Assembly (NCBI GenBank): GCA_041650895.1 | Contig: JBAZKF010000001.1 | Location: 573,181-637,180, forward strand | Length of the DNA stretch: 64,000 bases | Direction: 5' to 3' | Source of the DNA: Patescibacteria group bacterium | GTDB taxonomy: Bacteria > Patescibacteriota > Patescibacteriia > 2-01-FULL-39-33 | Part shown: piece by piece, positions 16,283 through 61,684 of the stretch | How the letters are laid out: every line of letters begins with the position of its first letter | Position numbering within the stretch: position 1 is the stretch's first letter | Position numbers and translations under genes: made by a program | Notes under the pieces: model-generated | Database searches by the model: none | Seen by the model: the letters and a program-made list of their open reading frames with translations, nothing else | Told to the model about the DNA's origin: nothing

Positions 16283-16293
16283 ACATTTTAATT

Positions 16294-44506: not shown

Positions 44507-44571
44507 ATAATTATTGTTAGTTAATCAGTCATAAAATTCTATCACTATTATAAGTTAATAACAATCATTGA

Positions 44572-44672
44572 TTCCATTGCCCCGTCCTCCATATAAAAAA
44601 ACACCCCGTCCGCGTCATCCTCCGCCAATTAACGGAGGCGGATGGCCGGAATGAGGCGCTTTTCGTAAGTGA
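44572..44672. repeat. Degenerate R4-type repeat module (with insertion) at proximal end of cassette array
   Basis: ttccattgccccgtcctccatataaaaaaacacccc ... gcgcttttcgtaagtgag resembles R4 consensus. Confidence 0.45.
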
Positions 44673-44767
44673 GACCAACACCATACCCAATGCAGTTGCC
44701 CTGATACCTCAACCGCTTGGCGACGAAATCAACTCTATTTAGGGGTTAGTTTTTTTGTCTTACTAGT

Positions 44768-44989
44768 TTATGATGATGTTATTTTTATTTGTTTGATTCC
44801 TGCGCGCAAAAGAATAGATAAAACAATAATTAGGGCAATAGTGATTATGATTAAGGGAGTGATCATTAGAAATGATCCACCGGAACTGATACCAAGAATA
44901 GAAAATATAACAGCATACCCAATTACTATGATCATGAGAATGCTGGCCGAAGAAATCATTAAAATTCCTGACATTTTTGATTTTTGCAT
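44768..44989 (-). CDS. Small membrane protein (73 aa)
   Basis: ORF track. Confidence 0.35.
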   Translation of the reverse strand: MQKSKMSGILMISSASILMIIVIGYAVIFSILGISSGGSFLMITPLIIITIALIIVLSILLRAGIKQIKITSS

Positions 44990-45006
44990 AAATACAATTT
45001 ATTTGA

Positions 45007-45378
45007 TTACTTTAGGCAAGACTGGGCTTGATATAAATCTATTGCGGTAATAATACTACCCTGCTTAATTTCATTAGTTCTTGTTGCTCCTAGTTTTGCA
45101 GTGAGACAAGCCTCCATTGTTGAACTGATCGACGTCGGTATTTTTGAAGTATCAATGCCAAGTTTCTTTAATCCTGCAATCTGCTCTTGAGTAAGCAATG
45201 GATTACTGCTGGGAGTTTTGTTCACGGCGTTATCCGCCGTGATTTGAGAAGGAAATATCAATGGTTTGATATTAAGTGGGTCTGCAATCCAGAAATATAT
45301 TCCGGCCAACAATAAAATAAAGAAGATAACCCCCAAAACGGTAAAGAAAACATTAATGATTTTAAGCAGTATTTTCAT
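45007..45378 (-). CDS. Membrane-anchored/secreted hypothetical protein (123 aa)
   Basis: N-terminal TM. Confidence 0.4.
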   Translation of the reverse strand: MKILLKIINVFFTVLGVIFFILLLAGIYFWIADPLNIKPLIFPSQITADNAVNKTPSSNPLLTQEQIAGLKKLGIDTSKIPTSISSTMEACLTAKLGATRTNEIKQGSIITAIDLYQAQSCLK

Positions 45379-45401
45379 AGTATGATATTATATTCTTTAT
45401 T

Positions 45402-45436
45402 ATAACAAAAAATCTCCATTTAAGCGACTTTTTTAT
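45402..45436. repeat. T0 hairpin repeat copy 2
   Basis: aaaaatctccatttaagcgactttttt. Confidence 0.55.
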
Positions 45437-45450
45437 AATCAGTTCCATTC

Positions 45451-45492
45451 TACGAGGATTACGAGTCGATTTTGGAAAAATTGATTGGGTGG
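45451..45492. repeat. R1 repeat (degenerate copy)
   Basis: tacgaggattacgagtcgattttggaaaaattgattgggtgg. Confidence 0.6.
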
Positions 45493-45536
45493 GGTTGAGT
45501 GGTTTAATAGATGTTTCTATGTGCAATTTTAGATAC

Positions 45537-45567
45537 TTGACAAAATAATACCTACATGATATACAAT
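45537..45567 (+). promoter_or_regulatory. Cassette promoter (TTGACA-17-TATACA, extended -10 TG)
   Basis: Part of conserved promoter family preceding cassette genes. Confidence 0.5.
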
Positions 45568-45618
45568 CATAAATTGTAAAGGTTAAATTGTTCTTTAAAA
45601 AACGGAGGAAAAATTCAG

Positions 45619-46584
45619 ATGAGTCTACGCTTAAGTAAAATTTTACCAATTGGCTGTGGCCAAACATATTTGGTTAAAACTCATGATGGTCATTATCTTG
45701 AGATGGGTGATGTGTTTATGGCTCGCGAGCTAAGTTTGGGAAGCAGGCCATATGCCTACGCTGATTTTGTTGACCCATCGGACACCAACAAGCGAGTGAT
45801 GACTATCTGTACAATGGCGGGCTGTTCGATGCATTGTCGATTTTGCTCCATGCACGATAGTTTCAAGAGAAATTTATCGGCAGAGGAAATAGTTGAACAG
45901 GTTGGGTTCATGGCTGAACAGGGTATTGCGCTAGGTCGAAATCCCGACCTAAACGCAGCTAAAGAGTTTCGAGTACTGTATACCCGTATGGGTGAACCAA
46001 TGGTTAACATTAATGCCGTTATCGACTCAATCCAAAGACTCATTGAACTGTATCCGCATGTGATTATCGGCATGAGTACGTCTGGGGTTATATCTGGATT
46101 AGAAAAACTTTTAGAATGCCCCGATATCCTACCTCACATCGATATGCAAATCAGCCTACACTCAACTGATGCGGATGAACGGCGCGAATTATTCGGTCGC
46201 AATGCCATGCCACTTGAACTAATTGCTGAATATGCAAAACGGTGGCACCACATTACAGGAAAACAATTATCATTAAATGTGATCCTGTTTGAGGGATACA
46301 GTTATGACTTCAAATCAATGGTGGAAAATTTTGAGTTTGATCCCAAAAGTATTTGGTTTAGACTTTCCCCCTGGAATGTTGTTGCCGGAGCAGACTTTGA
46401 CAGCCTACTCAAGGTCCAGGATATCATTGCGAAGCAGCCACTTTCCGGTGATGTCATAGCTATGATTATCCACGATATTAAAGATCTCGGCATTGCCTTT
46501 GCTTATGCACCGGCAATCGACAAGGAGATAGAGAATCAAGTGGCTTGCGGCCAAGCACTTGAGGCCTTCAAGAATATGATTTAG
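45619..46584 (+). CDS. Radical SAM RNA methyltransferase of the RlmN/Cfr family, N-terminally short (321 aa)
   Basis: GCSMHCRFCS..FKRNLSAEEIVEQV, MGEPMVNINAV, STSGV, ISLHSTDADERRELFGRN and C-terminal ACGQ match RlmN/Cfr landmarks. Confidence 0.7.
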   Translation: MSLRLSKILPIGCGQTYLVKTHDGHYLEMGDVFMARELSLGSRPYAYADFVDPSDTNKRVMTICTMAGCSMHCRFCSMHDSFKRNLSAEEIVEQVGFMAEQGIALGRNPDLNAAKEFRVLYTRMGEPMVNINAVIDSIQRLIELYPHVIIGMSTSGVISGLEKLLECPDILPHIDMQISLHSTDADERRELFGRNAMPLELIAEYAKRWHHITGKQLSLNVILFEGYSYDFKSMVENFEFDPKSIWFRLSPWNVVAGADFDSLLKVQDIIAKQPLSGDVIAMIIHDIKDLGIAFAYAPAIDKEIENQVACGQALEAFKNMI

Positions 46585-46649
46585 CTCATTAACTACGCAC
46601 TTACCCCGCGCAATTTCTTTCGGAGCTTCCGAAGAATCGCGTGGGGTTT

Positions 46650-46790
46650 TTCTTTTTCTCAAAATCACCTTCATCCTACCTGCCTGCCAGTAGGCAGACC
46701 CACCCTAGTAGCAAACCAACATAAAAAGACCTACAATTATAGGCCCTTTTATATCGTTCCATAAAGCGGGAGAAAGTGGACGAAGTTATA
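46650..46790. repeat. R2/R3-type repeat module (divergent copy) incl. terminator
   Basis: ...aaaaagacctacaattataggccctttt atatcgttccataaagcgggagaaagtggacgaagttataac. Confidence 0.55.
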
Positions 46791-46853
46791 ACTTTTTTTA
46801 TTAAAAATGAGGCGTTTGTGGTATAATGTATGTGTTATAAATAATAAATAAAT

Positions 46854-47519
46854 ATGAATAAAAAAATAATAGCGATTGTAATTATTTTGGTTATGGTTGT
46901 TGGTGTATTGTTTTTGACTTTTCAAGATAATATAAAAGATATATTATTTAAATCAAATATATCATTGGATAATGTAAGTATTGAAATAATTCAACCTCAT
47001 GCTAACCACAAATTGTCTCCAACACAGTTGGCTAAAGCAAAAGAACTTTTTGGCAAGAATAATATTAGTGAAGATTTTAATGAAGATTTATGGATTTATA
47101 ATTTAATAGAAGGAAATAATGGTGATTATATAATTAAAGCTCTCCAGTTATATAATGGACTCACCATTTTTTCTAGTGATTTGTATTATCATTTTAGAGA
47201 AAACGGCAATATTAGGTATTTGGTTGGAGATGTAGCTCATGTCGATATAAACTCTCTTGAACCAAAAATTTCACCAGAAGAAGCTATTTTAAAAATTAAA
47301 CGTAAACATAAATTAAAGTTGAATGATTTTAATATTGAATTAGGTCTTAGGGATAGGTATATTTCTATGGGTGAAAACAAACAAGAATACCTTTTAGTTT
47401 GGAAAATTACTAGGAATAATAAGGATAATAGTATTGGATTATCTGGCATGTTTAGTGAAGCAATAGTTGATGCAGTCACTGGAGACATTCTATATTATTT
47501 TGATGGCGTGTTTAATTAA
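46854..47519 (+). CDS. Secreted/membrane-anchored hypothetical protein (221 aa), very AT-rich
   Basis: N-terminal TM/signal. Confidence 0.45.
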   Translation: MNKKIIAIVIILVMVVGVLFLTFQDNIKDILFKSNISLDNVSIEIIQPHANHKLSPTQLAKAKELFGKNNISEDFNEDLWIYNLIEGNNGDYIIKALQLYNGLTIFSSDLYYHFRENGNIRYLVGDVAHVDINSLEPKISPEEAILKIKRKHKLKLNDFNIELGLRDRYISMGENKQEYLLVWKITRNNKDNSIGLSGMFSEAIVDAVTGDILYYFDGVFN

Positions 47520-47599
47520 AAAGTTTAGATCCCGCCCAGCCTCATAAAAAAGTATCAAAAAAACACCTAATATAATAGGTGTTTTTTTATCCAGATTTT

Positions 47600-47640
47600 G
47601 CGGGGCTTACGGGGTGATTTTGGAAAAATTGATTGGGTGG
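47600..47640. repeat. R1 repeat
   Basis: gcggggcttacggggtgattttggaaaaattgattgggtgg. Confidence 0.8.
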
Positions 47641-47706
47641 AGGTGGCGGGTAGTTTACCTAATTATCTAAAATTAGACAAACATTTTGGTTGAGGATAAA
47701 TTGATA

Positions 47707-47735
47707 TTGACATAATTATGACCATATGATATAAT
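47707..47735 (+). promoter_or_regulatory. Cassette promoter TTGACA-17-TATAAT
   Basis: Consensus sigma70 elements with TG extended -10. Confidence 0.6.
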
Positions 47736-47809
47736 TATATATTATCAAATGGTATAATTCAGCCATGGGATTAATCGTGGAAACGGCACTTAACATAAAG
47801 GAGACAAAA

Positions 47810-48184
47810 ATGAGGATTGGAATGTTTAATAAAAATAGCAATGGCTGTACACCATTGCTTCACCATCTTGCTTCTACTCTTGACATCAAAATTCAGTATG
47901 TAGATAAACTCTCTTATCTGACCGGCGAGGACTGTGAATTCAAACTTGATGTTTTGTTGGTGCACCCCAATCTGAGCCCGATTATGTGGGCTGCTCTGCG
48001 AGAATGTGTGCAAAAAAATCCGCACATCAAATTCGTAATTTTACTGGACTCCGAAAGCGTTAGTTGCTTTAATGCTAGCGGACTATCCGGCACCGCCAAT
48101 ATTGAAACGATCCATTGGACCAATGAGAGAGAGTTTCAAAAAATTATCCAACTCATGGAGAATGCGAGGCACTCTGCGGATTGA
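47810..48184 (+). CDS. Hypothetical protein (124 aa; RBS-supported start, track ORF 47765)
   Basis: aaggaga RBS then ATG MRIGMFNK. Confidence 0.45.
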   Translation: MRIGMFNKNSNGCTPLLHHLASTLDIKIQYVDKLSYLTGEDCEFKLDVLLVHPNLSPIMWAALRECVQKNPHIKFVILLDSESVSCFNASGLSGTANIETIHWTNEREFQKIIQLMENARHSAD

Positions 48185-48212
48185 GATTATTCTATTACAT
48201 TTTAGTTCATTA

Positions 48213-48247
48213 CGCCGGGAACAAGGAAGTTCTCGGCATTTTCATTT
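48213..48247 (+). terminator. Cassette terminator (gccgggaac-aagg-aagttctcggc + T-run)
   Basis: Hairpin family shared by several cassettes. Confidence 0.6.
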
Positions 48248-48362
48248 TCCTAAAATCCACTCCATCCCATCCGCCCTAGCCACAAATCAACAAAAAAAGA
48301 CCTACAAAAATAAGCCTTTTTAATCGTCTTATTATGCGAAGAGTAATAGACGATGTTAGAAC
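48241..48362. repeat. R2+R3 repeat module
   Basis: ttttcctaaaatccactcc..ccgccctagccacaaatcaacaaaaaaagacctacaaaaataagcc..cgtcttattatgcgaagagtaatagacgatgttagaacc. Confidence 0.8.
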
Positions 48363-48420
48363 CTATATTAGGCTTCACGATGGTGGTTTTGATATGCCAA
48401 TAATAAGATTGATATTAAGC

Positions 48421-48449
48421 TTGACAACATAATATTTATATGATATGTA
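48421..48449 (+). promoter_or_regulatory. Cassette promoter TTGACA-17-TATGTA
   Basis: Conserved tatgatat extended -10 region. Confidence 0.5.
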
Positions 48450-48502
48450 TAGTGTATTGAACATTAACAGAAAACAATAGGCAACTCAAAGGAGATACTA
48501 TT

Positions 48503-48901
48503 ATGGCAACACAAGAGTATATGTTAGTAACTTATTGGTGTTGGGATCATTTTCATAATGAATATTCAACAATTGCTATTGAAATGGATAGTGAAACAGA
48601 TGAGAGTATTGAATCTGTTTTTGACTCTAATGCACCACATTACCTAAAAAACTATCTTATTGGGATATTAAAGAGTATATTTGATACCCGAGAACGCAGC
48701 TCAAATATTTCAATGGGAAAAGGTAAAATGATTCGTCTTTTCAAAATTGTTGGTTCTAATGGATGTCCATTTGGTATTTCTCCGATTCCAAATCATGATT
48801 GCAAGGAATGGAAAATAGGCTTTACTTTGAAGCCAATATGCGACTTTGATAGGGATGGAAATCCAATTCCCCTAGGCTCTTTATATGAATTAAAGCGATA
48901 A
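48503..48901 (+). CDS. Hypothetical protein (132 aa), AT-rich
   Basis: RBS aaggaga. Confidence 0.45.
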   Translation: MATQEYMLVTYWCWDHFHNEYSTIAIEMDSETDESIESVFDSNAPHYLKNYLIGILKSIFDTRERSSNISMGKGKMIRLFKIVGSNGCPFGISPIPNHDCKEWKIGFTLKPICDFDRDGNPIPLGSLYELKR

Positions 48902-48970
48902 GTAAATAAAAAACTTCCACCTCGGACCGTCATCCTTGGGATGGGAGTTTTCTTTTTTTATTCTAATTTT

Positions 48971-49011
48971 GCGGGGCTTACGGGGTGATTTTGGAAAAAT
49001 CGATTGGGTGG
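48971..49011. repeat. R1 repeat
   Basis: gcggggcttacggggtgattttggaaaaatcgattgggtgg. Confidence 0.8.
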
Positions 49012-49232
49012 ATATTTCAGTAAAATTTAGTCAAAATTGTCTAAATTTAGGTAATTTAACATAATTATTTAATTTTAAATAAGACATAGATGAATAAAAT
49101 ACTTTACAAAAATGTATTTTTTGCTATAATACATTGTTAATTCCTAATGGAATTTTCAGTCGATCCGGACTGGTATAATACTAAAGGATAAAAATTGATC
49201 ATTAAAAAACAACAAAAAGGAGAGACAGCACC

Positions 49233-50315
49233 ATGAATAAGAGCTTGAGTTACGCCGTTAGGGCGACGGATCGTTGCAATCTGAATTGCCGTTATTGCTA
49301 TGCCAAGACCGAGAAACCACAGGATATGTCATTGGCGACATTAGTCAGAATTCTTGAGCAAATGGCTGATTATAATGCGGGGGAAACAGTAATTAGTTGG
49401 ACTGGTGGCGAACCATTGTTGATGGGTCGCGCTTTCTTTGAGCTCGTCTTGGCAACACAACGCCGACTCGGCAAAAAGTTTACTAATATTCTCCAAACCA
49501 ACGCCATCCTACTGGATAAAAATTGGATTGAGTTTCTGTTGGCTAATAACTTTCAGGTACGCACTAGCCTGGACTTTCCGCCCGAGTTGCATGATGAAAT
49601 GCGACAAGCCGGCAACTTTTCCGCTACTTTAGAAAAAATCAAATTAATGGTTGCCACCGGTTTGCCGGTTAACGTCAATACGGTCATCACCAATCGCAAT
49701 ATCGACAAGGTCGAAGAGATTTACGCTTTCCTTAAACAATTGGCGATTAGCAGTTTTTCTGTTTCTCGCATGGTGCTACAAGGCAATGCGTTGATCAATC
49801 ACGATCTGGCGATCCGCGAGAACAGTGAATTCGGATTATTCCTAGTCAAGCTCTTTGACTTGTGGATCAATGACCGAAACGAACCGCGGATTGCCCGGAT
49901 TACTCCGCTCGACAAACTACTCAATGCTTGCCAAAGCTATCTGCGGCATGACGACAAGGATCCTTGCTTCCATTGCCAAGATCAGCTTCTGGCCATCGGG
50001 CCGGGCGGGGAAGTTTATCCTTCCTGCAATAAATTCTTCGGCGTGCCAGAATCCTGCCTGGGCAATATTACTGACCGCAACTTAGCGGAAGTGCTAAAGT
50101 CTCCGGAACGAGGTAAGTTTCTCAGCGAAGTCAGCGCAGTAACCGAGCGACTCTGCAGCGAATGCGAATTCATGCCGATCTGCGAAGGCGGTTGTTTCTA
50201 TATCGCCTATAATATTCGCCACGAAGCCGAGCAAATTACCGGCCGCGAGCAATTCTGCAAAGGTTATTATCTTATCTTAGCCCGAATCATGGATTACCTG
50301 AGGGAGGGCAAATGA
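49233..50315 (+). CDS. Radical SAM/SPASM domain enzyme (360 aa)
   Basis: CNLNCRYC cluster; C-terminal CSECEFMPICEGGC. Confidence 0.7.
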   Translation: MNKSLSYAVRATDRCNLNCRYCYAKTEKPQDMSLATLVRILEQMADYNAGETVISWTGGEPLLMGRAFFELVLATQRRLGKKFTNILQTNAILLDKNWIEFLLANNFQVRTSLDFPPELHDEMRQAGNFSATLEKIKLMVATGLPVNVNTVITNRNIDKVEEIYAFLKQLAISSFSVSRMVLQGNALINHDLAIRENSEFGLFLVKLFDLWINDRNEPRIARITPLDKLLNACQSYLRHDDKDPCFHCQDQLLAIGPGGEVYPSCNKFFGVPESCLGNITDRNLAEVLKSPERGKFLSEVSAVTERLCSECEFMPICEGGCFYIAYNIRHEAEQITGREQFCKGYYLILARIMDYLREGK

Positions 50316-51313
50316 TGATCCAGATACCGACACTACACCAACTCAAATTCGCTGTCGGTTATGATTGTAATCGACGTTGCGGCTTTTGCCTGCAACAGAA
50401 TAGTGACCACCAGCCGATTCTTGACTTTGCCATCGTCGAGAAGATTTTTCAAGAGGAAATGGTGGCGCGAGATGTTAATCTTGTTACCTTAACTGGCGGT
50501 GAGCCGACCTTCGGCCGTTATTTACCCTTGACTCTACGCATCATCAGTCATATATCTCAGCTTGGCAAGCAATCTTGCATTTTCACTAACGGTGATTTTC
50601 TTGATGAGAATGCGCTCAGTGTCTTCCGCCAGGCTGGTGCAACGCGTTTTCGAGTCAGTTTGTATGACCCGATTGATTGGGATAGTACCGGTCGATTGAT
50701 TAAGACTCTTAAGTCTTTCGGTTATCCGGCGATGTTCAAATATACGGTAACCAAAGAGAGTTATGATAATTTACTACAAATCTTGATACGTTTTGGCGAG
50801 TCGGAAATCGAATGGTTCCAAATCAAGCCTTATAACAGGACTGAAATCCCAGCTCAAGACAAGCTTTATGAGATGTCACCTTATCAGGTTCTATCCATGG
50901 CTCGAATGCTGCTAGACTTTCGCAAACAATACCCGCGTATTAAAGTTGATCTACTACCTCTATGTTACGAATTTTTAGTTGATGAAACTCTGGATATTGG
51001 CGATCTCAGTCTGTGTCATTGTGGCAAGGGTTCACGCGGCTATCTGGTAATTGGCCCGACTGGCGACATACGCATCTGCGGCGCTTATCCCGATCCGATC
51101 GGTAATGCCCAAACCGATTCGATTACTGAGCTATGGCAGAATCACCCTTTGCTACAGCAAGTACGCGGTTTGGCGAGCCGTCCCAAACCCCAGGAATGCG
51201 CGGGGTGCGCGCACTGGAAAAAATGCGCGGCTACTGATTGTCATAGTGCAACTTTCGCTAGATACGGTAATTTCGCACATGGCAACCCGCAATGTCCGCT
51301 ACTGGCTCAATAA
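50312..51313 (+). CDS. Radical SAM/SPASM-like enzyme (333 aa), start overlaps previous stop (ATGATGA)
   Basis: CNRRCGFC cluster; C-terminal Cys motifs CAGCAHWKKC. Confidence 0.65.
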   Translation: MMIQIPTLHQLKFAVGYDCNRRCGFCLQQNSDHQPILDFAIVEKIFQEEMVARDVNLVTLTGGEPTFGRYLPLTLRIISHISQLGKQSCIFTNGDFLDENALSVFRQAGATRFRVSLYDPIDWDSTGRLIKTLKSFGYPAMFKYTVTKESYDNLLQILIRFGESEIEWFQIKPYNRTEIPAQDKLYEMSPYQVLSMARMLLDFRKQYPRIKVDLLPLCYEFLVDETLDIGDLSLCHCGKGSRGYLVIGPTGDIRICGAYPDPIGNAQTDSITELWQNHPLLQQVRGLASRPKPQECAGCAHWKKCAATDCHSATFARYGNFAHGNPQCPLLAQ

Positions 51314-51330
51314 TCTGCTCATTACTACAC

Positions 51331-51365
51331 GCCGAGAACAAGGAAGTTCTCGGCGTTTTCTTTTT
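51331..51365 (+). terminator. Cassette terminator (gccgagaac-aagg-aagttctcggc perfect hairpin + T-run)
   Basis: Perfect 9-bp stem. Confidence 0.65.
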
Positions 51366-51380
51366 GTAAAAATCTGCAAT

Positions 51381-51467
51381 CGATTCCATCGTCCCGTTCT
51401 TAGTATAAAAAACACCCCAATTATGGGGCGTTTTTCGTAGGCGGGCTCGAGTGGGACTGATTATAAC
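51381..51467. repeat. R4 repeat + tRNA-Asp-3-prime-like segment
   Basis: ttccatcgtcccgttcttagtataaaaaacaccccaattatggggcgtttttcgtaggcgg gctcgagtgggactgattataac. Confidence 0.75.
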
Positions 51468-51553
51468 TTATTTTAAGGAGCATAAAGGGGTTTATTATGT
51501 ACCGAATTTAGCTAAAATTAGATGAAATTGAGAATATGTGGATAAATCGCTAT

Positions 51554-51581
51554 TGACAAAATAATTGCTATATGCTATAAT
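51554..51581 (+). promoter_or_regulatory. Cassette promoter TTGACA-16-TATAAT
   Basis: Consensus elements. Confidence 0.55.
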
Positions 51582-51699
51582 TGAATATTAAAACTGATTC
51601 CTATTTTTGCGAGATAATAACTCAGAAAACATCGATTTTCTTGGCTGTAGTGTCTCAAAAATCACGAAACTAAAAACTTAGGCAAAAAAGGAGTTTACC

Positions 51700-52179
51700 A
51701 TGAATCAGTCCGCACTTTCCCAATATGAACAAGGTTCCGCTGAACGAGTTATCGCTCATGCCGCTTGGAAACATTCGCGGGGTCGCCAACCCTCGATGAC
51801 TTTCATACTGGAGCACAATCCCCGCAAAGCTCTGGCGCTCGCAAAGTCTGTTATCCGTTGCAATCAACAAACCAAGCTGCTCGATCGAATCGGGGCAAAG
51901 ATTGTCGAGTCCAAAACATACGACAACATGACCGACGCCGAGATCAAAATCGCAGTAAGAAGTATCATCTCCTCATCATCATCTGAAGAAGAAGTGAAAC
52001 AGAGGGTCCGCGATGAACTCGGCTGTCCCTACGGTATCTGTCTTAGCACCGATGTTCCTACCGACGTAGTCGGGAGAGAAGCAAGAGAACTGGTGCGTGG
52101 CCTCGGTGGTCTTGTAATGAAGAACGGCGCCATGGCGATGGCTACGATACACGGCCATAATGGAGTCATTTTGATTTGA
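51700..52179 (+). CDS. Hypothetical protein (159 aa)
   Basis: RBS aaggag. Confidence 0.45.
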   Translation: MNQSALSQYEQGSAERVIAHAAWKHSRGRQPSMTFILEHNPRKALALAKSVIRCNQQTKLLDRIGAKIVESKTYDNMTDAEIKIAVRSIISSSSSEEEVKQRVRDELGCPYGICLSTDVPTDVVGREARELVRGLGGLVMKNGAMAMATIHGHNGVILI

Positions 52180-52212
52180 CCACCAAATAACGAAGCACAT
52201 TCCCCCGCACGA

Positions 52213-52257
52213 TTTTGGGAAGCCCCAAACATTGTGCGGGGCTTTTCATTTTGTTAA
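52213..52257 (+). terminator. Cassette terminator (ccccgcac...gtgcgggg hairpin type 2)
   Basis: Same hairpin at 54027-54065. Confidence 0.6.
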
Positions 52258-52294
52258 AATTTCACTAAGTTATAATGTCCCATTACCCCTATCA

Positions 52295-52355
52295 AAAAAC
52301 ACCCCGATTATGGGGCGTTTTTCGTAGGCGGAGGGTAATAAACGATGTTAGAACC
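52295..52355. repeat. Partial R4 + R3 module
   Basis: aacaccccgattatggggcgtttttcgtaggcggagggtaataaacgatgttagaacc. Confidence 0.7.
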
Positions 52356-52404
52356 CGTCTTAAGGAAAACGACAAATTTAGTTTACCCAGTTCGGCAATT
52401 ATAA

Positions 52405-53178
52405 CTAGAATGATTTAGATAAAAAAATTGGAAACTCAAATTTAAGACGATAGCCATTCTTTGTCACTGAAGCAGCCTTCCTGTCCTTAGATAAAATGGT
52501 TTGCATTCGCTTTATATCGCTATTATCTAGCTTATATCTATCAATATGGTCCTTATCTGAAAGCAACATTTGTTTTCCTCTACCTATTAATTGTGGAGCC
52601 GTAAAACCGGCTCTTTTATAAATATCAACCATATCTAATGATTGAAAAAAACGGTTGCCAATTTTATTAGATGAATTATAGGCGAGACTTAAAGTGTCGC
52701 GGTCATCTAAGTTAGGAATGTAGGCTGGCTGATTTACAAAGAGTCCATCTTTTTTTAGATGCTTTTTAATAATTTTAAGAACCTTTATTTGCAATTTTTT
52801 AGAAGGAAAATAATCAAGGGAACTCCTCATTATTACAAGGTCGAATTTTTTGTGAAGATTCATTTTAAGCAAATCAACGCACACCTTAGTTGTTTTGGGA
52901 TTTTTGTTTTCGCTCAAGTGTTTTGACGAAGCGTCAACAATAGTTAATCGTCCTCGTCCTAAGCTATTTATAAGTTTCTCTCCCAAAAGTCCGGAAGCCG
53001 AAGCAACATATAAGATATCTAAATTCCTCTTTGGTAAATAAGGTTTTACTGCTTTAATAAAGAGCTTGAAATTTTGTTCATCAGAAAAATAACCGCCATA
53101 GGTTAATAGCCAATCTTTTCCCAGAACATTTTTATCTTTATCTAAATTATACTTAACTATTTTGGAAGGAGTGGTCAC
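52405..53178 (-). CDS. Probable class I SAM-dependent methyltransferase (257 aa), inverted orientation in array
   Basis: LDILYVASASGLLGEKL motif I-like; DLVIMRSSLDYF. Confidence 0.45.
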   Translation of the reverse strand: MTTPSKIVKYNLDKDKNVLGKDWLLTYGGYFSDEQNFKLFIKAVKPYLPKRNLDILYVASASGLLGEKLINSLGRGRLTIVDASSKHLSENKNPKTTKVCVDLLKMNLHKKFDLVIMRSSLDYFPSKKLQIKVLKIIKKHLKKDGLFVNQPAYIPNLDDRDTLSLAYNSSNKIGNRFFQSLDMVDIYKRAGFTAPQLIGRGKQMLLSDKDHIDRYKLDNSDIKRMQTILSKDRKAASVTKNGYRLKFEFPIFLSKSF

Positions 53179-53244
53179 AAGATTAAAAAAATAATTATTT
53201 ATTTACTAAATTTTATCATTTTTGGGCACCAAAAACAATCAAAA

Positions 53245-53343
53245 GTTCTATCGTCCCGTTCTTAGTACAAAAAACACCCCGATTATGGGGCGTTTTTCGT
53301 AGGCGGGGCTTACGGGGTGATTTTGGAAAAATTGATTGGGTGG
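53245..53343. repeat. R4 + R1 composite repeat
   Basis: ctatcgtcccgttcttagtacaaaaaacaccccgattatggggcgtttttcgtaggcggggcttacggggtgattttggaaaaattgattgggtgg. Confidence 0.8.
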
Positions 53344-53445
53344 ATTTTTCATCAAAATTTAGTCAAAACTGTTTAAATTTAGGTAATTTATGATAATTAT
53401 TTAGCTAATTTTAGAGAAAATACAGTGAATATGTGGATAAAATAC

Positions 53446-53474
53446 TTGACAAAATTTAATTCATATGATAAAAT
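53446..53474 (+). promoter_or_regulatory. Cassette promoter TTGACA-17-TAAAAT
   Basis: Conserved. Confidence 0.55.
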
Positions 53475-53541
53475 AATATAATGACAATTTTATCAGAGGG
53501 TAATTTAGTACAATAACAACAACCAACAGGAGACAAAAGAC

Positions 53542-53844
53542 ATGGGAGACTCGGTGAACATTCACGGGTTGGACAAGGCTGCGGTTTTGGCGGCGTTATA
53601 TAACGCTTCGAGGCCGCAAGGGCTTGGCATTTTACAATTCGATGCGAAGCCAATGACGCGCGATGAGGCGGCCAAAATCCTCGAGCAGCAAACCCACTTC
53701 GACTATCTCAAAGGCCGGGTCATGAAAATCGACCTGTCCAAGGACGAAGTTGGTATTTGGGGTTACGACCGTGACAACGGTGCCGGTGCCGCCGCAAAGG
53801 CGATTGAAGCGCTGCATATCAGTGGCAACGCCAACAATGAATGA
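53542..53844 (+). CDS. Hypothetical protein (100 aa), GC-rich
   Basis: RBS caggaga. Confidence 0.45.
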   Translation: MGDSVNIHGLDKAAVLAALYNASRPQGLGILQFDAKPMTRDEAAKILEQQTHFDYLKGRVMKIDLSKDEVGIWGYDRDNGAGAAAKAIEALHISGNANNE

Positions 53845-54019
53845 TACCATCCAAGCCACTCACGCACAAGGCGCGCACGATGCCGCGAAGGCTGCCCGTG
53901 AGATGATGGGACAGGAAACGGCCTTCCGTCAGGAAAACGGGATAGCCGTCATGAATCTTGGCCTCGCCGATATGTGCGATGTTCTCGATCCAGCTATCGA
54001 CCGCGGCCTCAAGCAGTAG
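53839..54019 (+). CDS. Small hypothetical protein (59 aa), translationally coupled (ATGA overlap) to previous ORF
   Basis: MNDTIQATHAQGAHDAAKAAREMMGQ...; track ORF 53750..54019 trimmed to coupled ATG. Confidence 0.35.
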
Positions 54020-54026
54020 CACAACG

Positions 54027-54071
54027 CCCCGCACGATTTTGGGAAGCCCCAAACATTGTGCGGGGCTTTTC
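54027..54071 (+). terminator. Cassette terminator (hairpin type 2)
   Basis: ccccgcacgattttgggaagccccaaacattgtgcgggg + T-run. Confidence 0.6.
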
Positions 54072-54191
54072 ATTTTCCTAAAATCCACTCCGTCCCGTCC
54101 GCCCTACCCATTAAATCAACAAAAAAAGACCTACAAAAATAAGCTTTTTTAATCGTCTTATTATGCGAAGAGTAATAGACGATGTTAGAAC
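54071..54191. repeat. R2+R3 module
   Basis: Near-identical to 48241-48362. Confidence 0.8.
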
Positions 54192-54249
54192 TTATCTAAG
54201 TGGATGCAAGAAGTGTTTTGAAATAACTAGAATCAACCAGAATTGATGC

Positions 54250-54278
54250 TTGACAAAATTATTCTTATATGATACAAT
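54250..54278 (+). promoter_or_regulatory. Cassette promoter TTGACA-17-TACAAT
   Basis: Conserved. Confidence 0.55.
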
Positions 54279-54348
54279 CATATGTTAATAGTTCATTAGC
54301 TTGATAGGATTATTATTACCCAAACAAACACAAAGGAGGTCACTAATA

Positions 54349-54687
54349 ATGACGACTCAAAACTATCTCCAAATCGCAAGGGACAATGAAGCGATATTCA
54401 GAAATGTGCTGAGAGACCTAAGGGATAATAGAACAATCAGACCTATGGGACTCTATGTTCCTGAAGACCTGGAAACGGAAGCGGAGCTTGAAAAGATTTT
54501 TGAAGAATACTCTTCTGGAAATAGATACGGAATATTCACGATTACCGATTTCACGGTCGGCGAAGGGTTTGCAACTATTGCGTTTCAAGACATTGCTTGC
54601 TTATCCGGAGGCGGGGCAAGATTAAAGTATTCTGTCAGTGACGACGACGTGCAATACCTTGAGCCAGAATTCACAATGATGAGTTAA
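54349..54687 (+). CDS. Hypothetical protein (112 aa; RBS-supported start)
   Basis: aaggagg RBS then ATG MTTQNYLQ. Confidence 0.45.
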   Translation: MTTQNYLQIARDNEAIFRNVLRDLRDNRTIRPMGLYVPEDLETEAELEKIFEEYSSGNRYGIFTITDFTVGEGFATIAFQDIACLSGGGARLKYSVSDDDVQYLEPEFTMMS

Positions 54688-54756
54688 ATACCGCCAGCCA
54701 CAAACAAAGTACAACTACGCAATTAACGCCGAGGACAAGGAAATCCCCGGCGTTTT

Positions 54757-54892
54757 CTTTTTTCCTAAAATCCCCTCCGTCCCGTCCGCCCTAGCCATAA
54801 ATCAACAAAAAAAGACCTACAAAAGTAGGCCTTTTTATATCGTTCCATAAAGCGGGGCTTACGGGGCGATTTTGGAAAAATCGATTGGGTGG
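54757..54892. repeat. R2 + R1 composite repeat
   Basis: ttttcctaaaatcccctccgtcccgtccgccctagccataaatcaac...tatatcgttccataaagcggggcttacggggcgattttggaaaaatcgattgggtgg. Confidence 0.8.
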
Positions 54893-54969
54893 GATTAGTA
54901 TTATATTTGCCAAATTATCTAAATTTAAACAATTATTTAGGTTAATTCATTAATTTTGTTAAACATCAA

Positions 54970-54998
54970 TTGACAAATTACCAAACTTGTATTAAGAT
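54970..54998 (+). promoter_or_regulatory. Cassette promoter TTGACA-17-TAAGAT
   Basis: Conserved. Confidence 0.5.
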
Positions 54999-55077
54999 AC
55001 TCTATTGTACTCCTCATTTATTTCAAGTGGGGGTAAATAGTACAATGCACATTAACAGGAAAAAAGGAGAAGACTTC

Positions 55078-56421
55078 ATGAACCTAACTATAATCGTAAC
55101 ACTGGGCGCTATTGGATTAGTGGTACTAATCGGATTGGCATCCGCACTGTTATTTCGACATGTGGTGAGCACCAATATGGTGCACATTGTACAAAGTCGA
55201 GCAAAAACAACTCCATATGGCACTGGGCAAAAATCCGGTAACGTCTACTACAAATGGCCATCTTGGATTCCAATTTTAGGCGTGACAGTAATTGAATTGC
55301 CGGTAAGCAACTTTGATTTGTCGCTGAACGGCTATGAAGCCTATGATAAAGACAGGGTACCCTTTATGATTGATGTTACTGCCTTCTTTCGCATCAATAA
55401 TACGGCTGAAGCCGCTCAACGCGTCGCCAGTATTCAAGAGATGCGTGAACAATTGGAACTCATTGTAAAGGGTGCTGTAAGAAAAGTCTTGGCATCAGAC
55501 GTTATTGATGCTATTATGGTAGAACGCTCAAAATTTGGAGACCAGTTCACCCATGAAGTTAAAGATCAGCTGATCCAATGGGGCGTCGAATCTGTCAAAG
55601 CTATGGAATTGATGGATATTCGCGACACCAAGGGGTTCGAGGTTATTGCCAATATAATGGCGAAAAAGACATCTTTTATCGCCATGGAAAGCCGCTTAGA
55701 GGTGGCAAGCAATCATCGGAAAGCTGAGAATGCGGAAATTGAGGCGGAACAAGCCATCAGCGTTCGCCAACAAGAATCCCAACAGGTGGTTGGTGAACGG
55801 ACTGCTCAAAAAGATAAGTTGGTGGGAATCGCCCAACAACAGGCACAACAAGAAGTTCTCGAACAAGAAAAAGAAACCCGCGAACGACAAATGGCTGTGC
55901 AACGGGTTCAGCAGGTTCGCGCGGCGGAAATCAGTAAGGACGAAAAAGTCGTTGCTGCTGAGCAAGACAAGGCTACTCGCGTCATTATGGCCGATGGCTC
56001 TCTGTTAGCCCAAATTAAGGAAGCTGAGGGTATCGAAAAACTCGGTGAAGCCAGAGCCGCAGCCGAAAAAGCGATGCAATTGGCACCGGTTCAAGCCAAT
56101 ATTACGTTGGCGAAAGAAATCGGACAAAATGCTGGCTATCAACAATACCTGGCGATGATTGAAGCCATCAAGGCATACATTACTGTTGGAGGTGAACAAG
56201 CAAAGGCTCTGCAAAAAGCTGATGTTAAGGTAATTGCCAATGCTGGACAGCCGACAGAAGGCGTCAAAAATGTCATGGATATGTTCACTTCCAAAGGTGG
56301 AACGAACATGGCGGCAATGATTGAAGCACTCGCTCAGACGCCAATGGGTGCCAAACTTTTGGCAACATTCATCGGCAATAATAGCGATAATGCCGAGGCT
56401 ACTATCGATACTGAGGCATAA
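55078..56421 (+). CDS. SPFH/band-7 (flotillin-like) protein with N-terminal TM and Ala/Glu/Gln-rich coiled coil
   Basis: TM then SPFH-like region, long EAQ-rich coiled coil; start at RBS-supported MNLTII (track 54970). Confidence 0.6.
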   Translation: MNLTIIVTLGAIGLVVLIGLASALLFRHVVSTNMVHIVQSRAKTTPYGTGQKSGNVYYKWPSWIPILGVTVIELPVSNFDLSLNGYEAYDKDRVPFMIDVTAFFRINNTAEAAQRVASIQEMREQLELIVKGAVRKVLASDVIDAIMVERSKFGDQFTHEVKDQLIQWGVESVKAMELMDIRDTKGFEVIANIMAKKTSFIAMESRLEVASNHRKAENAEIEAEQAISVRQQESQQVVGERTAQKDKLVGIAQQQAQQEVLEQEKETRERQMAVQRVQQVRAAEISKDEKVVAAEQDKATRVIMADGSLLAQIKEAEGIEKLGEARAAAEKAMQLAPVQANITLAKEIGQNAGYQQYLAMIEAIKAYITVGGEQAKALQKADVKVIANAGQPTEGVKNVMDMFTSKGGTNMAAMIEALAQTPMGAKLLATFIGNNSDNAEATIDTEA

Positions 56422-56442
56422 GTATAATTTTTTTTCAACAAC

Positions 56443-56472
56443 GCTGAAGACATTCGTCTTCAGCTTTTTTAT
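56443..56472 (+). terminator. Cassette terminator (gctgaagac-attc-gtcttcagc + T-run)
   Basis: Perfect 9-bp stem. Confidence 0.65.
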
Positions 56473-56590
56473 TTTTCTAAAATCATCGTTACCCCATCCG
56501 CCCTAGCCACGAATCAACAAAAAAAGACCTACAAAAATAGGCCTTTTTATATCGTTCCATCTAGCGGAGAGTAATAGACGATGTTAGAAC
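56465..56590. repeat. R2+R3 module
   Basis: ...ccgccctagccacgaatcaacaaaaaaagacctacaaaaataggcctttttatatcgttccatctagcggagagtaatagacgatgttagaac. Confidence 0.8.
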
Positions 56591-56638
56591 TTATATAGGT
56601 GGATGCGAGAGGAATTATGAGATACCAAGAATATGAGC

Positions 56639-56667
56639 TTGACAAAATTAACTGTAATTGCTAAGGT
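56639..56667 (+). promoter_or_regulatory. Cassette promoter TTGACA-17-TAAGGT
   Basis: Weaker -10. Confidence 0.4.
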
Positions 56668-56708
56668 CTAATATCGAACATTCGACTACAACCAAGGGGA
56701 GATACATA

Positions 56709-57089
56709 ATGACTAAACGAGAATACATACCAAAAGCAAGTGTAAAGAAAAGTGATATAAAAAGAGAAATTTTAGTGGCAATGATTGATTGCGCAGAAAA
56801 TATACGTGGTTATTATGAAGCTGCTGCTGGTTTAATATTTGAGGATGGTTATATACCTCCAGAAGAATTTAGACCCGGGGTAGCTGACAGATTTTTGTTT
56901 TCAAAAATTATTGACGATGATTGGGAAAGAGTGTTAGATATCTACTGTTGCGCACCACTACACCCCAGAATGATTGGGTTTGGACTAATGATAGAAAAAT
57001 ACTATCCCCAGTATGGCACTTTCAGAAAAATGAGCGAGGAAGAAAAAAGAGAGAGAATGAAGCTTAAAAAAACTTGTAGACGAGGATGA
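56709..57089 (+). CDS. Hypothetical protein (126 aa; RBS-supported start), AT-rich
   Basis: aagggga RBS then ATG MTKREY. Confidence 0.45.
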   Translation: MTKREYIPKASVKKSDIKREILVAMIDCAENIRGYYEAAAGLIFEDGYIPPEEFRPGVADRFLFSKIIDDDWERVLDIYCCAPLHPRMIGFGLMIEKYYPQYGTFRKMSEEEKRERMKLKKTCRRG

Positions 57090-57141
57090 AATCAGCCAAT
57101 AAAAAACTCCCAAATTGGGAGTTTATTTTTATTTGGAAAAT

Positions 57142-57182
57142 GCGGGGCTTACGGGGTGATTTTGGAAAAATTGATTGGTTGG
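57142..57182. repeat. R1 repeat
   Basis: gcggggcttacggggtgattttggaaaaattgattggttgg. Confidence 0.8.
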
Positions 57183-57249
57183 AATTAATATCTGGTTTAC
57201 CTAGTTATCTAAAATTAGATAAATACTTAATCTATTAATAATCCTAGTA

Positions 57250-57278
57250 TTGACAAAAAAATACTACTATGATATACT
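57250..57278 (+). promoter_or_regulatory. Cassette promoter TTGACA-17-TATACT
   Basis: Conserved. Confidence 0.55.
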
Positions 57279-57372
57279 AATTTGATATTCCATTATTGGA
57301 ATCTCATCCCAGTCCGGGATGGCAGTCGCCAAAAGGACAAAGAACCTTACAGTTAGAAAGGAAAAACCGACC

Positions 57373-58065
57373 ATGGATGACATGCTTGGTGATGCTCTGA
57401 AGACCATCTTCGGACCATTGAAAAACCTCATGGAGCAATTACAGGGAAACAAACGTGAACTGTGGTTGCAAGTATTACAGCAATTATCGAGAATGAAACC
57501 GGAAACGGTTTTACTTAAACTCAGCCGACCACTTTCTCCTCCCCTTTGGATTAAAATCGAGGTTGGCGGACTTAAACTCAAACCGTTGCAAATTATTGAA
57601 AAATTTACTGCGGCAGGAGTCGGTCCAAACCATAAATTCCCATTGATGTTTAGTTTGATTGAGTATCAGCGAGGAATCAACGCTGAAACTAAAGATGTTG
57701 AGTTCGTTAAGGGCAATCTTTATGAACTATTTGGAATCACAAAAGAGAAGATTTCCGTCGACTATTTTCTAAACAATGAATTTCTGGCGCAATATGGACT
57801 AGAGCTATGTGAACCTGCCGATGCAATCTCTATTCGTCTCGCTTGGAAAGATCAAAGAAAGGGCGAAAGGGCTTTTGTGGGGACAAAGCCTTACTACTAT
57901 ACAAGAAAAGAACAGCCAGATGGATACCTCTACCCAACAGTTCCTTCGCTGATGGGAGCGGCTGGAAAGGTATGGTTTGGAGAGGATTGGGCCACGGCCG
58001 ACATGGGACCTTGTAGTTACACTCGTAATGTTTGGATATTCAGACGTAAGTGCATCCAATCGTAA
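57373..58065 (+). CDS. Hypothetical protein (230 aa; track ORF starts 57319)
   Basis: RBS-like aaggaaaaa before ATG 57373. Confidence 0.4.
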   Translation: MDDMLGDALKTIFGPLKNLMEQLQGNKRELWLQVLQQLSRMKPETVLLKLSRPLSPPLWIKIEVGGLKLKPLQIIEKFTAAGVGPNHKFPLMFSLIEYQRGINAETKDVEFVKGNLYELFGITKEKISVDYFLNNEFLAQYGLELCEPADAISIRLAWKDQRKGERAFVGTKPYYYTRKEQPDGYLYPTVPSLMGAAGKVWFGEDWATADMGPCSYTRNVWIFRRKCIQS

Positions 58066-58085
58066 GCACATTCGATAAATTTCAA

Positions 58086-58117
58086 CACCGAGGACAAGAA
58101 AGTTCTCGGTGTTTTCA
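58086..58117 (+). terminator. Cassette terminator (caccgagga-caagaaa-gttctcggtg)
   Basis: Same hairpin at 61685-61710. Confidence 0.6.
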
Positions 58118-58236
58118 TTTTCCTAAAATCCACTCCGTCCCGTCCGCCCTAACCACAAATCAACTAAAAAAGACCTACAAAAGTAGGCCTTTTTATATCG
58201 TTTCATCTAGCGGGAGAAAGTGGACGAAGTTATAAC
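58112..58236. repeat. R2 + R3-variant module
   Basis: ...ccgccctaaccacaaatcaactaaaaaagacctacaaaagtaggcctttttatatcgtttcatctagcgggagaaagtggacgaagttataacc. Confidence 0.8.
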
Positions 58237-58300
58237 CTTTTTTAATACATACGAAGGTTATTATTACATACCAAACTTAAGTTCAATAAAATAACTACTT

Positions 58301-58957: not shown

Positions 58958-58994
58958 AGTTTTTAATTGTTTTCATTTATACGTTTAGTATACT

Positions 58995-59024
58995 AAAAAA
59001 TCGCCATTTAGGCGACTTTTTATA
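58995..59024. repeat. T0 hairpin repeat copy 3
   Basis: aaaaatcgccatttaggcgacttttt then ataatctgttccgtttgcggac (degenerate junction motif). Confidence 0.55.
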
Positions 59025-59135
59025 ATCTGTTCCGTTTGCGGACTGGTGAGGTCAAGTACCAAAATATAGAGGTCTTTCAAAGCTTTTTTGGACTATTTAT
59101 TTTAGAAAATTTGAGGTGTTAGGGTCATGATATAT

Positions 59136-60125: not shown

Positions 60126-60185
60126 AGCTCGATCTTTTTATGCACATTTGAAGTGCTCGGGTCGCTCGATAAAACGAGCTTAGTG

Positions 60186-60226
60186 GCGGGGCTTACGGGG
60201 CAATTTTGGAAAAATTGATTGGATGG
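60186..60226. repeat. R1 repeat
   Basis: gcggggcttacggggcaattttggaaaaattgattggatgg. Confidence 0.75.
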
Positions 60227-60293
60227 AGGTGGTGATAGATTGGCCAAATTGTCTAAAATTTAACAAGCGCTTTATTTGTTGATAATTTTCTCC

Positions 60294-61666: not shown

Positions 61667-61684
61667 GCACACCAACACCGAGGA

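Follow-up and report, generated by a model that had tools for sequence, protein, structure and literature searches.

A cassette array beside a tRNA gene in a Buchananbacteria-like Patescibacteria chromosome: probable boundary repeats and a separate palindrome upstream of the promoters

The window analysed here is a 64,000-nucleotide stretch of the 957,791-bp contig JBAZKF010000001.1, which NCBI lists as 'Patescibacteria group bacterium' and which belongs to a Patescibacteria (Buchananbacteria-like) chromosome. The question that it raises concerns positions 47600-47735. These 136 bases hold, in order, a repeat called R1 (GCGGGGCTTACGGGGTGATTTTGGAAAAATTGATTGGGTGG), a variable stretch of 22 nt, a palindrome (TTATCTAAAATTAGACAA), 26 nt, a TTGACA hexamer, a 17-nt spacer and a TATAAT hexamer preceded by TG. 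The initial annotation read them as one regulatory architecture, through which a single DNA-binding factor could control many otherwise unrelated cassettes. The segment is the front end of one cassette (C3) in an array that adjoins a tRNA gene, and the question is which of its parts mark the boundary of the cassette and which act on its promoter. It is probably the 5' boundary and promoter region of the cassette, with R1 as an attachment-site-like (att-like) boundary module and the palindrome as a separate element.

R1, its direct repeats, the dyad block and the near-consensus extended -10 promoter are all far above chance. The two direct repeats reported earlier are present within R1 (TGATTTTGG at 47615-47623 and TTGATTGGG at 47629-47637), 14 bp apart from start to start. 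R1 (GCGGGGCTTACGGGGYRATTTTGGAAAAATYGATTGGNTGG) has six full copies and one degenerate copy (Table 1), all on the + strand, and its core is not found elsewhere in the 64 kb on either strand. The palindrome has the form TTATCTAA-AA-TTAGATAA. Blocks starting at 47666, 49040, 53372, 54918, 57208 and 60252 agree with the coordinates given earlier, including the weaker copy at 53372, and all six lie at +66 or +69 from the start of a full R1 copy. The motif exceeds its random frequency in the window. The strict form TCTAAAWTTWRA has four matches against 0.52 expected, all of them palindrome blocks, and TCTAAAWTTAG has four against 0.12 expected, of which three are blocks and the fourth (53415, minus strand) is inside the same R1 leader.

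The promoter of the segment matches TTGACA-17-TATAAT at every one of the 12 positions and has the TG, as had been proposed, and is convincing as a strong, constitutive-type extended -10 promoter. The extension of this arrangement to the other R1 cassettes holds in part, since it is strong in the C3 copy but weaker in the cassettes that begin at 54852 (TAAGAT, without TG) and 60186 (TTGACG/TAATAT). Across the 19.6-kb array region six promoters on the + strand match at least 11/12 positions, all with TG, against 0.46 expected. A leader of about 68 nt follows the C3 promoter, and then an open reading frame (ORF) with an ATG at 47810, supported by a Shine-Dalgarno sequence (SD), and a stop at 48184.

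The other cassettes are built in the same way. A boundary repeat comes first, then a leader with the promoter and a 5' untranslated region (UTR) of 60-110 nt; one or two ORFs follow, with an SD before the start codon, and a terminator module closes the unit. A cassette measures about 0.6-2.5 kb. Each is transcriptionally self-contained, with its own promoter and terminator. The 16 repeat-started units begin with R1 (seven), R2 (six) or R3 (three), and R2 and R3 are without the palindrome. The right ends are unique terminators or one of two repeated modules, T_a and T_b, and the T and R types occur in all combinations. There are 41 terminator-like sites or hairpins, where 16.3+/-5.2 would be expected. 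In three cassettes the genes lie on the minus strand, two of these cassettes standing behind the R2 copies at 52329 and 62945, and the boundary repeat is still in + orientation.

The behavior of R1 in related genomes bears on what kind of module it is. Two Candidatus Buchananbacteria metagenome-assembled genomes and 11 metagenome stretches of the Joint Genome Institute (JGI) also have the R1 pattern, accompanied by the R2, R3, T_a and T_b modules of the window; the modules are 75-90% identical between genomes. The pattern is too AT-rich for a scan of genome contigs, where 35 of 37 matches lacked GCGGGGCTTACGGGG and were due to chance. In relatives R1 often stands immediately before a promoter, the palindrome being absent (L039, L028-3238, L042-2980), or before the 3' end of a convergent gene (L044, L046, L028-893). 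R1 is therefore separable from the palindrome and promoter, and this makes it a boundary or att-like module, not an operator. The distance from R1 to the -35 hexamer ranges from 62 to 143 nt, and the second direct repeat is poorly kept in relatives (TTGAGTGG, TTGGATGG, TTAAGCGG). The inclusion of R1 in a regulatory unit is not supported, in view of these observations, of the architecture that R1 shares with R2 and R3, of the tRNA end that stands in its slot and of the palindrome behind a different repeat. It is very likely that R1 is a boundary module rather than an operator.

R1, R2 and R3 share the architecture GCGG-N9-GRYGAWKTTDKAA, with G[GA][TC]GA[TA][TG]TT[GAT][GT]AA after the N9. The tRNA-Asp gene that ends the array has a 3' end that reads GGCGGACCGGACGGG... 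on the + strand, with its GCGG exactly where R1, R2 and R3 begin. Set against the 3' halves of tRNA-Asp and tRNA-Ser, the R repeats begin with GCGG, which an insert of 5 nt separates from an acceptor/T-arm-like stretch whose last bases are ..TTNGAAC; in a fourth type, R4 (L030 and L039), this insert is missing. All boundaries share the GCGG and a spaced T-loop-like core with tRNA ends. Each of the 34 junctions, which come from 12 loci, has a sharp start at GCG[GA][AG][GA]. The sequences on their left sides are unrelated to one another, and four left partners (T_a, T_b, a further module T_d, and unique sequence) abut a tRNA or an R repeat at the same base. In T_a the left arm is an inverted copy of R1, with significance (z 5.4-7.0), and in both T_a and T_b the left arm resembles the 3' end of tRNA-Asp on its sense strand (z 4.3-4.6). 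Owing to these inverted arms each T_a- or T_b-type junction forms an imperfect palindrome, about 100-130 nt long, around the terminator, and these junctions fold as bulged hairpins (duplex z -4.0, -3.25, -2.6 and -2.2). From position, spacing and alignment we infer that the R repeats are att-like sites that mimic a tRNA end; it is these three features that must be relied on, since the similarity is below the detection of blastn-short and Rfam.

Two truncated copies of R1 were also observed (L028 at 3238 and L054 at 9942, both on the minus strand). They are without the first 17-19 nt (GCGGGGCTTACGGGGTG) and begin (GA)TTTTGGAA, which hints at a second recurrent breakpoint inside the R core. A pseudo-tRNA-Ser at the left edge of the array (44.65-44.72 kb) was considered, and its alignment was unconvincing.

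Comparison of one tRNA locus between relatives shows how much the array varies. The number of cassettes between the ArsM gene and tRNA-Asp is 0 in L058, 2 in L054 and 16-17 in the window. L054 and the window share synteny over 20 kb (epimerase, HAD, AAA_17, ParA, a 1409-aa protein, ArsM, array, tRNA-Asp, rpsP), but in L054 just two cassettes, 1.9 kb in all, separate ArsM from this tRNA-Asp, with a T_a/tRNA-Asp junction. The last cassette of L054 is cassette C9 of the window with both flanking T_a modules (8954-8111 against window 54025-54855, 79% identity over 860 nt). The homology stops at TTCCATAAA/GCGG (window base 54852), where L054 continues into the tRNA and the window into R1 and 9.0 kb of further cassettes before the tRNA is reached. 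L058 is an empty site, in which the hairpin (T_d) upstream of ArsM is directly followed by tRNA-Asp (...TTTTTTAAAAT/GCGGAGCGGACGGG). L052 has an array of five cassettes, ArsM itself being a reversed cassette, that ends T_b/CGGAGAAGGAGAGATTTGAAC at the 3' end of a tRNA-Ser(CGA). The same cassettes have different neighbours in different genomes, and the gene of cassette C14 with its conserved 5' UTR stands behind R1 and the palindrome in the window and behind an R2 module in L052. The flanks of the array are cellular core genes (groEL, the CCA-adding enzyme and, in the syntenic relative L054, from which the flank beyond the tRNA was taken, rpsP). For the source genome itself, exact matches to proteins of the window gave only short contigs that are identical or 99.9% identical to it. 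A phage origin was rejected, as the R1 and R2 patterns are absent from IMG/VR. An M2/M32-type peptidase gene (41950-43665, between the gene for a 1407-aa protein and ArsM) is absent from L054 (10740-10951). Since this indel sits outside the R-bounded array, the flexible region reaches to the left of 44.5 kb.

A recombinase encoded elsewhere could produce these arrays if it joined a circular cassette, at its T/GCGG-R junction, to the GCGG with which the tRNA ends. This would give X/R-cargo-T/tRNA, so the newest cassettes would stand next to the tRNA and older ones would be pushed away from it. Integration of this kind would account for the free combination of an old T with a new R, the sharp GCGG boundary, the co-orientation of the repeats and the series of 0, 2 and 16-17 cassettes. 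In its full form the proposal is a gene-capture system of candidate phyla radiation (CPR)/Patescibacteria bacteria, in which self-sufficient cassettes with tRNA-3'-end mimics (R1-R4) are moved by a recombinase acting in trans into integron-like arrays without intI, attI or attC, and subsets of these captured genes come under a common regulator by means of portable operator-promoter modules. This full proposal is put forward tentatively, as a possibility with somewhat less than even chances.

The palindrome requires a reading of its own. It was found at ten sites in five genomes, and nine of these (the six of the window and those of L049, L030 and L028; the tenth is in L039) were aligned. Aligned, they show a conserved block, an island between flanks that vary, with the sequence AATTATCTAAA/ATTAGAYAA and 6-10 of 12 mirrored positions paired. 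The sites include some behind R4, where the palindrome is at +39 from the start of the repeat. Because its distance is +66 or +69 from R1 but +39 from R4, the stable partner of the palindrome is the promoter, not the boundary repeat, and the palindrome is a separate, portable cis-element.

The earlier reading was to be refuted by a palindrome position that is not conserved relative to the -35 hexamer, and conservation holds by half: the distance varies, but it does so in steps of about 10.5 bp. From the palindrome centre to the start of the hexamer there are 35.5, 36.5, 36.5, 46.5, 57.5 and 68.5 nt in the window, and 35.5 (L049), 46.5 (L030), 35.5 (L028) and 45.5 nt (L039) in the relatives. 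Thus five sites fall in a class at 35.5-36.5 nt, three at 45.5-46.5, and one each at 57.5 and 68.5, which places the centres near -71, -82, -93 and -104. Since these spacings fall on one helical face, a site for a transcription factor is plausible, and from the sequence we consider this the probable function of the palindrome. Class I activator sites of CRP-type geometry lie at -61.5, -71.5, -82.5 and -92.5. The palindrome resembles them in occurring at variable upstream distances that differ by whole helical turns; it differs in that its sequence is unrelated to any nameable operator. Most likely it would be bound by a dimeric factor, which could act with class I activator-like geometry or through a repressor or looping site, and which would co-regulate the cassettes that carry the element. 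The conserved, phased dyad and the strong promoter before unrelated genes agree with the earlier proposal of one DNA-binding factor, here for several cassettes, but R1 falls outside the unit, and no HTH regulator was found in the array.

Several findings weigh against the reading of the segment as a boundary module followed by an operator and promoter, and against the capture mechanism built on it. An additional palindrome site in L056 is 31.5 nt from a weak -35 hexamer, which is out of phase. The phasing test was made post hoc, with p of about 0.01 by our own estimate (four of the five independent spacings outside the 36-nt class in phase), and the arms of the palindrome are AT-rich and only 5-8 bp long. 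No cognate regulator was identified for the palindrome, and no helix-turn-helix (HTH) protein was found among the array proteins scanned. The similarity between the R repeats and tRNA ends is short, and both blastn-short and the Rfam tRNA model miss it. Junctions with unique terminators have no significant inverted-repeat pairing. Some breakpoints of gain and loss are at ORF edges and not at R (L042 versus L039; the upstream of C2, which differs between the window and L028), and because such gene-level indels do not use R boundaries, homologous or illegitimate recombination also contributes. Lastly, no tyrosine recombinase was found by Pfam on the larger ORFs of the window (mostly at least 100-120 aa) and a tblastn search of the window with XerD, by XerD tblastn of 15 relative loci (L004, L028, L030, L031 and L039-L049), or in precomputed Pfam tables within 8-10 kb of either array end in L054 and L052. 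The search also covered Pfam on ten relative-locus proteins and the precomputed Pfam tables of L051-L062, and there is no recombinase in any scanned cassette protein.

The sole lead to a regulator is a TrmB/HTH_24-like gene with a weak half-match to the palindrome. The half-match, TCTAATTTTAAA (24173-24184), is 26.5 nt upstream of the TTGACA -35 hexamer of this gene (24240-25045, ATG at 24240), a distance shorter by one helical turn than that of the 36.5-nt class; chance would give about two matches as loose as this in the window.

Four other explanations of the segment and its array were weighed. One keeps R1, the palindrome and the promoter together as a single regulatory region, in which one factor recognises R1, the palindrome or both. 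In support of this, the direct repeats do exist, the palindrome shows conservation as well as phasing with the promoter, and the spacing between R1 and palindrome is fixed (+66/+69) in all six window copies. However, relatives have R1 without a palindrome, against a promoter or before convergent genes, R1 stands 62 to 143 nt from the -35 hexamer, and the palindrome also follows R4, at +39. R1 is moreover related to R2 and R3 and interchangeable with a tRNA end, and its second direct repeat is poorly conserved. This explanation is quite unlikely. The fixed +66/+69 distance could also mean that the palindrome is an architectural site for a DNA-bending protein, like integration host factor (IHF) or HU, of a recombination apparatus acting at R1. 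Arm sites for DNA-bending proteins are typical of attP regions, and TATCTAAAATTAG matches 7/9 specified positions of the textbook IHF consensus WATCAANNNNTTR. Such a role is very unlikely, as most R1 copies of the relatives are without the palindrome, the distance from R4 is different (+39), and the phase of the palindrome is kept relative to the promoter and not to R.

The remaining two concern the array as a whole. The cassettes may resemble the promoter-plus-stem-loop elements (PeSLs) of T4-type phages, regulatory cassettes with no dedicated recombinase, whose modules provide portable homology so that homologous recombination (for example after natural transformation) shuffles the genes; GCGG would then be merely the start of the shared sequence. 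The composite of promoter and stem-loop flanking ORFans is that of PeSLs (PMC2839356, PMC4122927), no recombinase was found near the array ends searched, the modules are 75-90% identical and occur in all combinations, and some breakpoints are at ORF edges. Homologous recombination cannot, however, make a first terminator-tRNA junction in which only GCGG(A/G) is shared. Four left partners abut the tRNA or R at one base, the 3' ends of two different tRNAs are used, and the boundary repeats are co-oriented even where the cargo gene is reversed. On balance the explanation is unlikely. A cluster of attC sites lacking integron-integrase (CALIN), in which the T...R junctions are attC and IntI is encoded elsewhere, would agree with the one- or two-gene cassettes, the co-oriented junction repeats, the hypervariable array at a fixed locus, the 100-130-nt imperfect palindromes of T_a- and T_b-type junctions with their bulged bases, and the GTTAGAA in R2, which is close to the attC core GTTRRRY. 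It is highly improbable nevertheless: intI, attI and Pc are all missing, the cassettes each have a promoter, and a tRNA anchors the array. The conserved boundary is GCGG and not GTTRRRY cut after its G, about half of the junctions have no inverted-repeat partner, and no R halves are chimeric between types in 34 junctions (two copies outside these, L028-3238 and L054, are without the first part of R1). The probable reading therefore remains an att-like boundary repeat followed by a separate palindrome and promoter.

Each of the known systems shares part of its design with this array. In integrons the attC sites are imperfect inverted repeats, R''(RYYYAAC)...R'(GTTRRRY), with the crossover between G and TT, and the cassettes are promoterless and served by the common promoter Pc. 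The present array is like chromosomal integrons and CALINs (such as the Vibrio cholerae repeats) in its length and co-orientation, its one- or two-gene cassettes of mostly unknown function, its fixed locus, a content that differs wildly between relatives and junction repeats that are partly imperfect palindromes of about 100-130 nt. It is unlike integrons in lacking intI, attI and Pc in the array, in cassettes with strong promoters and terminators of their own, in its CPR host, in a boundary of GCGG plus a tRNA-3'-like core instead of R''/R' (GTTRRRY), and in its anchoring on a tRNA 3' end. In T4-type phages the PeSLs are composites of sigma-70 promoter and terminator that flank ORFans in hyperplastic regions and mark indels and replacements (PMC2839356, PMC4122927). 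The modules described here likewise combine a promoter with a stem-loop terminator, flank ORFan or unknown cargo and bound an indel between relatives; unlike PeSLs they are on a cellular chromosome, with an extra boundary repeat that is not a promoter, tRNA anchoring and an operator-like palindrome. In tRNA-targeting islands or tycheposons of streamlined genomes, insertion takes place at tRNA 3' ends, older elements are pushed away and the boundary repeats are tRNA-like (bioRxiv 10.1101/2020.12.28.424599). Like them, the array adjoins a tRNA 3' end (that of tRNA-Asp in the window and in L054, that of tRNA-Ser in L052) and would grow by push-away accretion. Its units differ in their size of 0.6-2.5 kb, without integrase or replication genes, and its boundaries are conserved families (R1-R3) mimicking tRNA ends (GCGG, 5 nt and a T-arm-like core) rather than decaying exact partial tRNAs.

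A full-text literature search on cassette arrays, attC or tRNA islands of CPR/Patescibacteria/Parcubacteria, and on papers naming Buchananbacteria, gave no description of the system. CPR genomes are about 1 Mb in size and are thought to hold few classical mobile elements, which is why the turnover of their accessory genes is poorly understood. The 0, 2 and 16-17 cassettes at one tRNA locus in three related genomes show that genes turn over here by a fast and modular route. Should the R repeats be tRNA-end mimics at which recombination takes place, the array would be an integron-like capture platform on a different site logic, whose cassettes come with promoters and terminators of their own and sometimes with a shared operator as well. 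One regulator could then control a flexible regulon of captured genes. The modules may also be useful as markers for flexible islands in CPR metagenomes.

Table 1. Coordinates of the features of the cassette array in the window
Feature	Position	Strand	Remark
Whole array	44567..63897	+	16 R-started cassettes and one without R; 19.3 kb; all boundary repeats co-oriented
Degenerate R1 (ACGAGGATTACGAG...)	45452..45492	+	Start of cassette C1 (radical SAM gene 45619-46584)
R3 boundary repeat (GCGGGAGAAAGTGGACGAAGTTATAAC)	46766..46792	+	Another at 58210, variant at 51442
R1 boundary repeat of C3	47600..47640	+	Holds direct repeats TGATTTTGG and TTGATTGGG
Dyad-symmetric block of C3 (TTATCTAAAATTAGACAA)	47663..47680		Centre 35.5 nt upstream of -35 hexamer
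C3 promoter	47707..47735	+	TTGACA-17-TATAAT with TG; sigma-70-type, 12/12 match
R2 boundary repeat (GCGRAGRGTAATAGACGATGTTAGAAC; GCGGAGGGTAATAGACGATGTTAGAAC)	48336..48362	+	Other starts 52329, 54165, 56564, 61800, 62945
C5 front end	48971..49130	+	R1 48971-49011; palindrome block 49037-49054; promoter TTTACA-16-TATAAT 49103-49130; two radical SAM/SPASM genes
C8 front end	53303..53474	+	R1 53303-53343; weaker palindrome block 53369-53386; promoter 53446-53474
T_a right-end module	54726..54851	+	Terminator hairpin, C-rich inverted R1-like arm (ATTTTCCTAAAATC..CCGTCCCGTCCGCCC), second bidirectional hairpin, ATATCGTTCCAT; other copies near 46630, 48212, 54040, 56439, 58085, 61675
C10 front end	54852..54998	+	R1 54852-54892; palindrome block 54915-54932; promoter 54970-54998; SPFH protein, ATG 55078
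C12 front end	57142..57278	+	R1 57142-57182; best palindrome TTATCTAAAATTAGATAA 57205-57222; promoter 57250-57278
C14 front end	60186..60322	+	R1 60186-60226; palindrome block 60249-60266; promoter TTGACG-17-TAATAT 60294-60322
T_b right-end module (ATCGGTTCCATCGTCCCGTTCT, hairpin, TTTTTTGTAG)	63836..63897	+	Abuts tRNA-Asp; other copies start 51379, 52265, 53241, 62882; diverged copy 44567 is the left array edge
tRNA-Asp(GTC)	63898..63973	-	3' end on + strand reads GGCGGACCGGACGGGACTCGAACC (GCGGACC...); closes the array in the R1/R2/R3 slot

The cargo of the window array is mixed and mostly of unknown function, and includes three radical-SAM proteins, a methyltransferase, an SPFH protein and an HD protein. 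NCBIfam gave no match for ten cargo proteins, and the protein of cassette C16 is an ORFan. A reading as a defence island was dropped, as PADLOC gave only generic radical-SAM and methyltransferase similarity in the window cassettes. The two radical SAM/SPASM genes of C5 (49233-51313; 360 and 333 aa) overlap by 4 nt and could form a peptide-maturase set like those of ribosomally synthesized and post-translationally modified peptides (RiPPs); another SPASM protein is encoded at 22740-23897. The 5' UTR of C14, about 90 nt in length (60329-60418; ...GGGCGGAAGGCC...AAGGTTCCTTACAACGGCGGAATGCCGAAGGAG), is conserved in L052 at about 7440-7362 (minus strand), where the upstream promoter module is different. 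It may be a structured leader RNA, with no Rfam match at E<=1. The arrays of relatives (L056 1-16200, L039 and L030) carry Fic/DOC proteins, some with a C-terminal winged helix, AbiEii, a MerR-type regulator, macro-domain, DUF3800 and RecQ-like proteins, and therefore the cargo leans towards toxin and defence functions in some genomes. GmrSD and HsdR-like genes are on the same L056 locus.

The module T_d (TATAACAAAAAATCGCCATTTAGGCGACTTTTT) is the fourth repeated module and occurs in the window at 43697-43739, 45396-45438 and 58984-59026, as well as in L030, L040, L054, L056 and L058. It is located upstream of minus-strand genes for the peptidase, a 123-aa protein and the HD protein, and of ArsM in relatives, where it directly abuts R repeats, or the tRNA at the empty site. 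T_d is probably the terminator and promoter region of reversed cassettes.

Two further candidates for the nature of the repeats were set aside. The R and T modules are not clear tRNA fragments, as blastn-short gave only 10-14-nt matches (E of about 3), and they are not RNA genes by Rfam, which found only real tRNAs at gathering thresholds and at E<=1.

The sole recombinase match of the search is a large serine recombinase (5780-7456, minus strand) in a separate, unrelated element. This element is an insertion of about 11.7 kb with low GC content (32-35% against about 43% around it) that splits a ComM/Mg-chelatase-like gene at window 5009-18273, with the N-terminal part at 5009-5890 and the C-terminal part at 17596-18273. 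The insertion begins with the serine recombinase and carries genes for a 751-aa Toprim/primase-like protein and for DUF3761 and CAP-domain proteins. It has the look of a mobile element that has integrated, or of a prophage-like island, and is unrelated to the cassette array.

Two observations concern the tRNA genes of the window. The tRNA-Asp gene is without a full encoded CCA end. A tRNA-Ile with the anticodon TAT (28842-28915), an uncommon bacterial tRNA species, adjoins tRNA-Val(GAC) and the gene of the CCA-adding enzyme (27154-28692).

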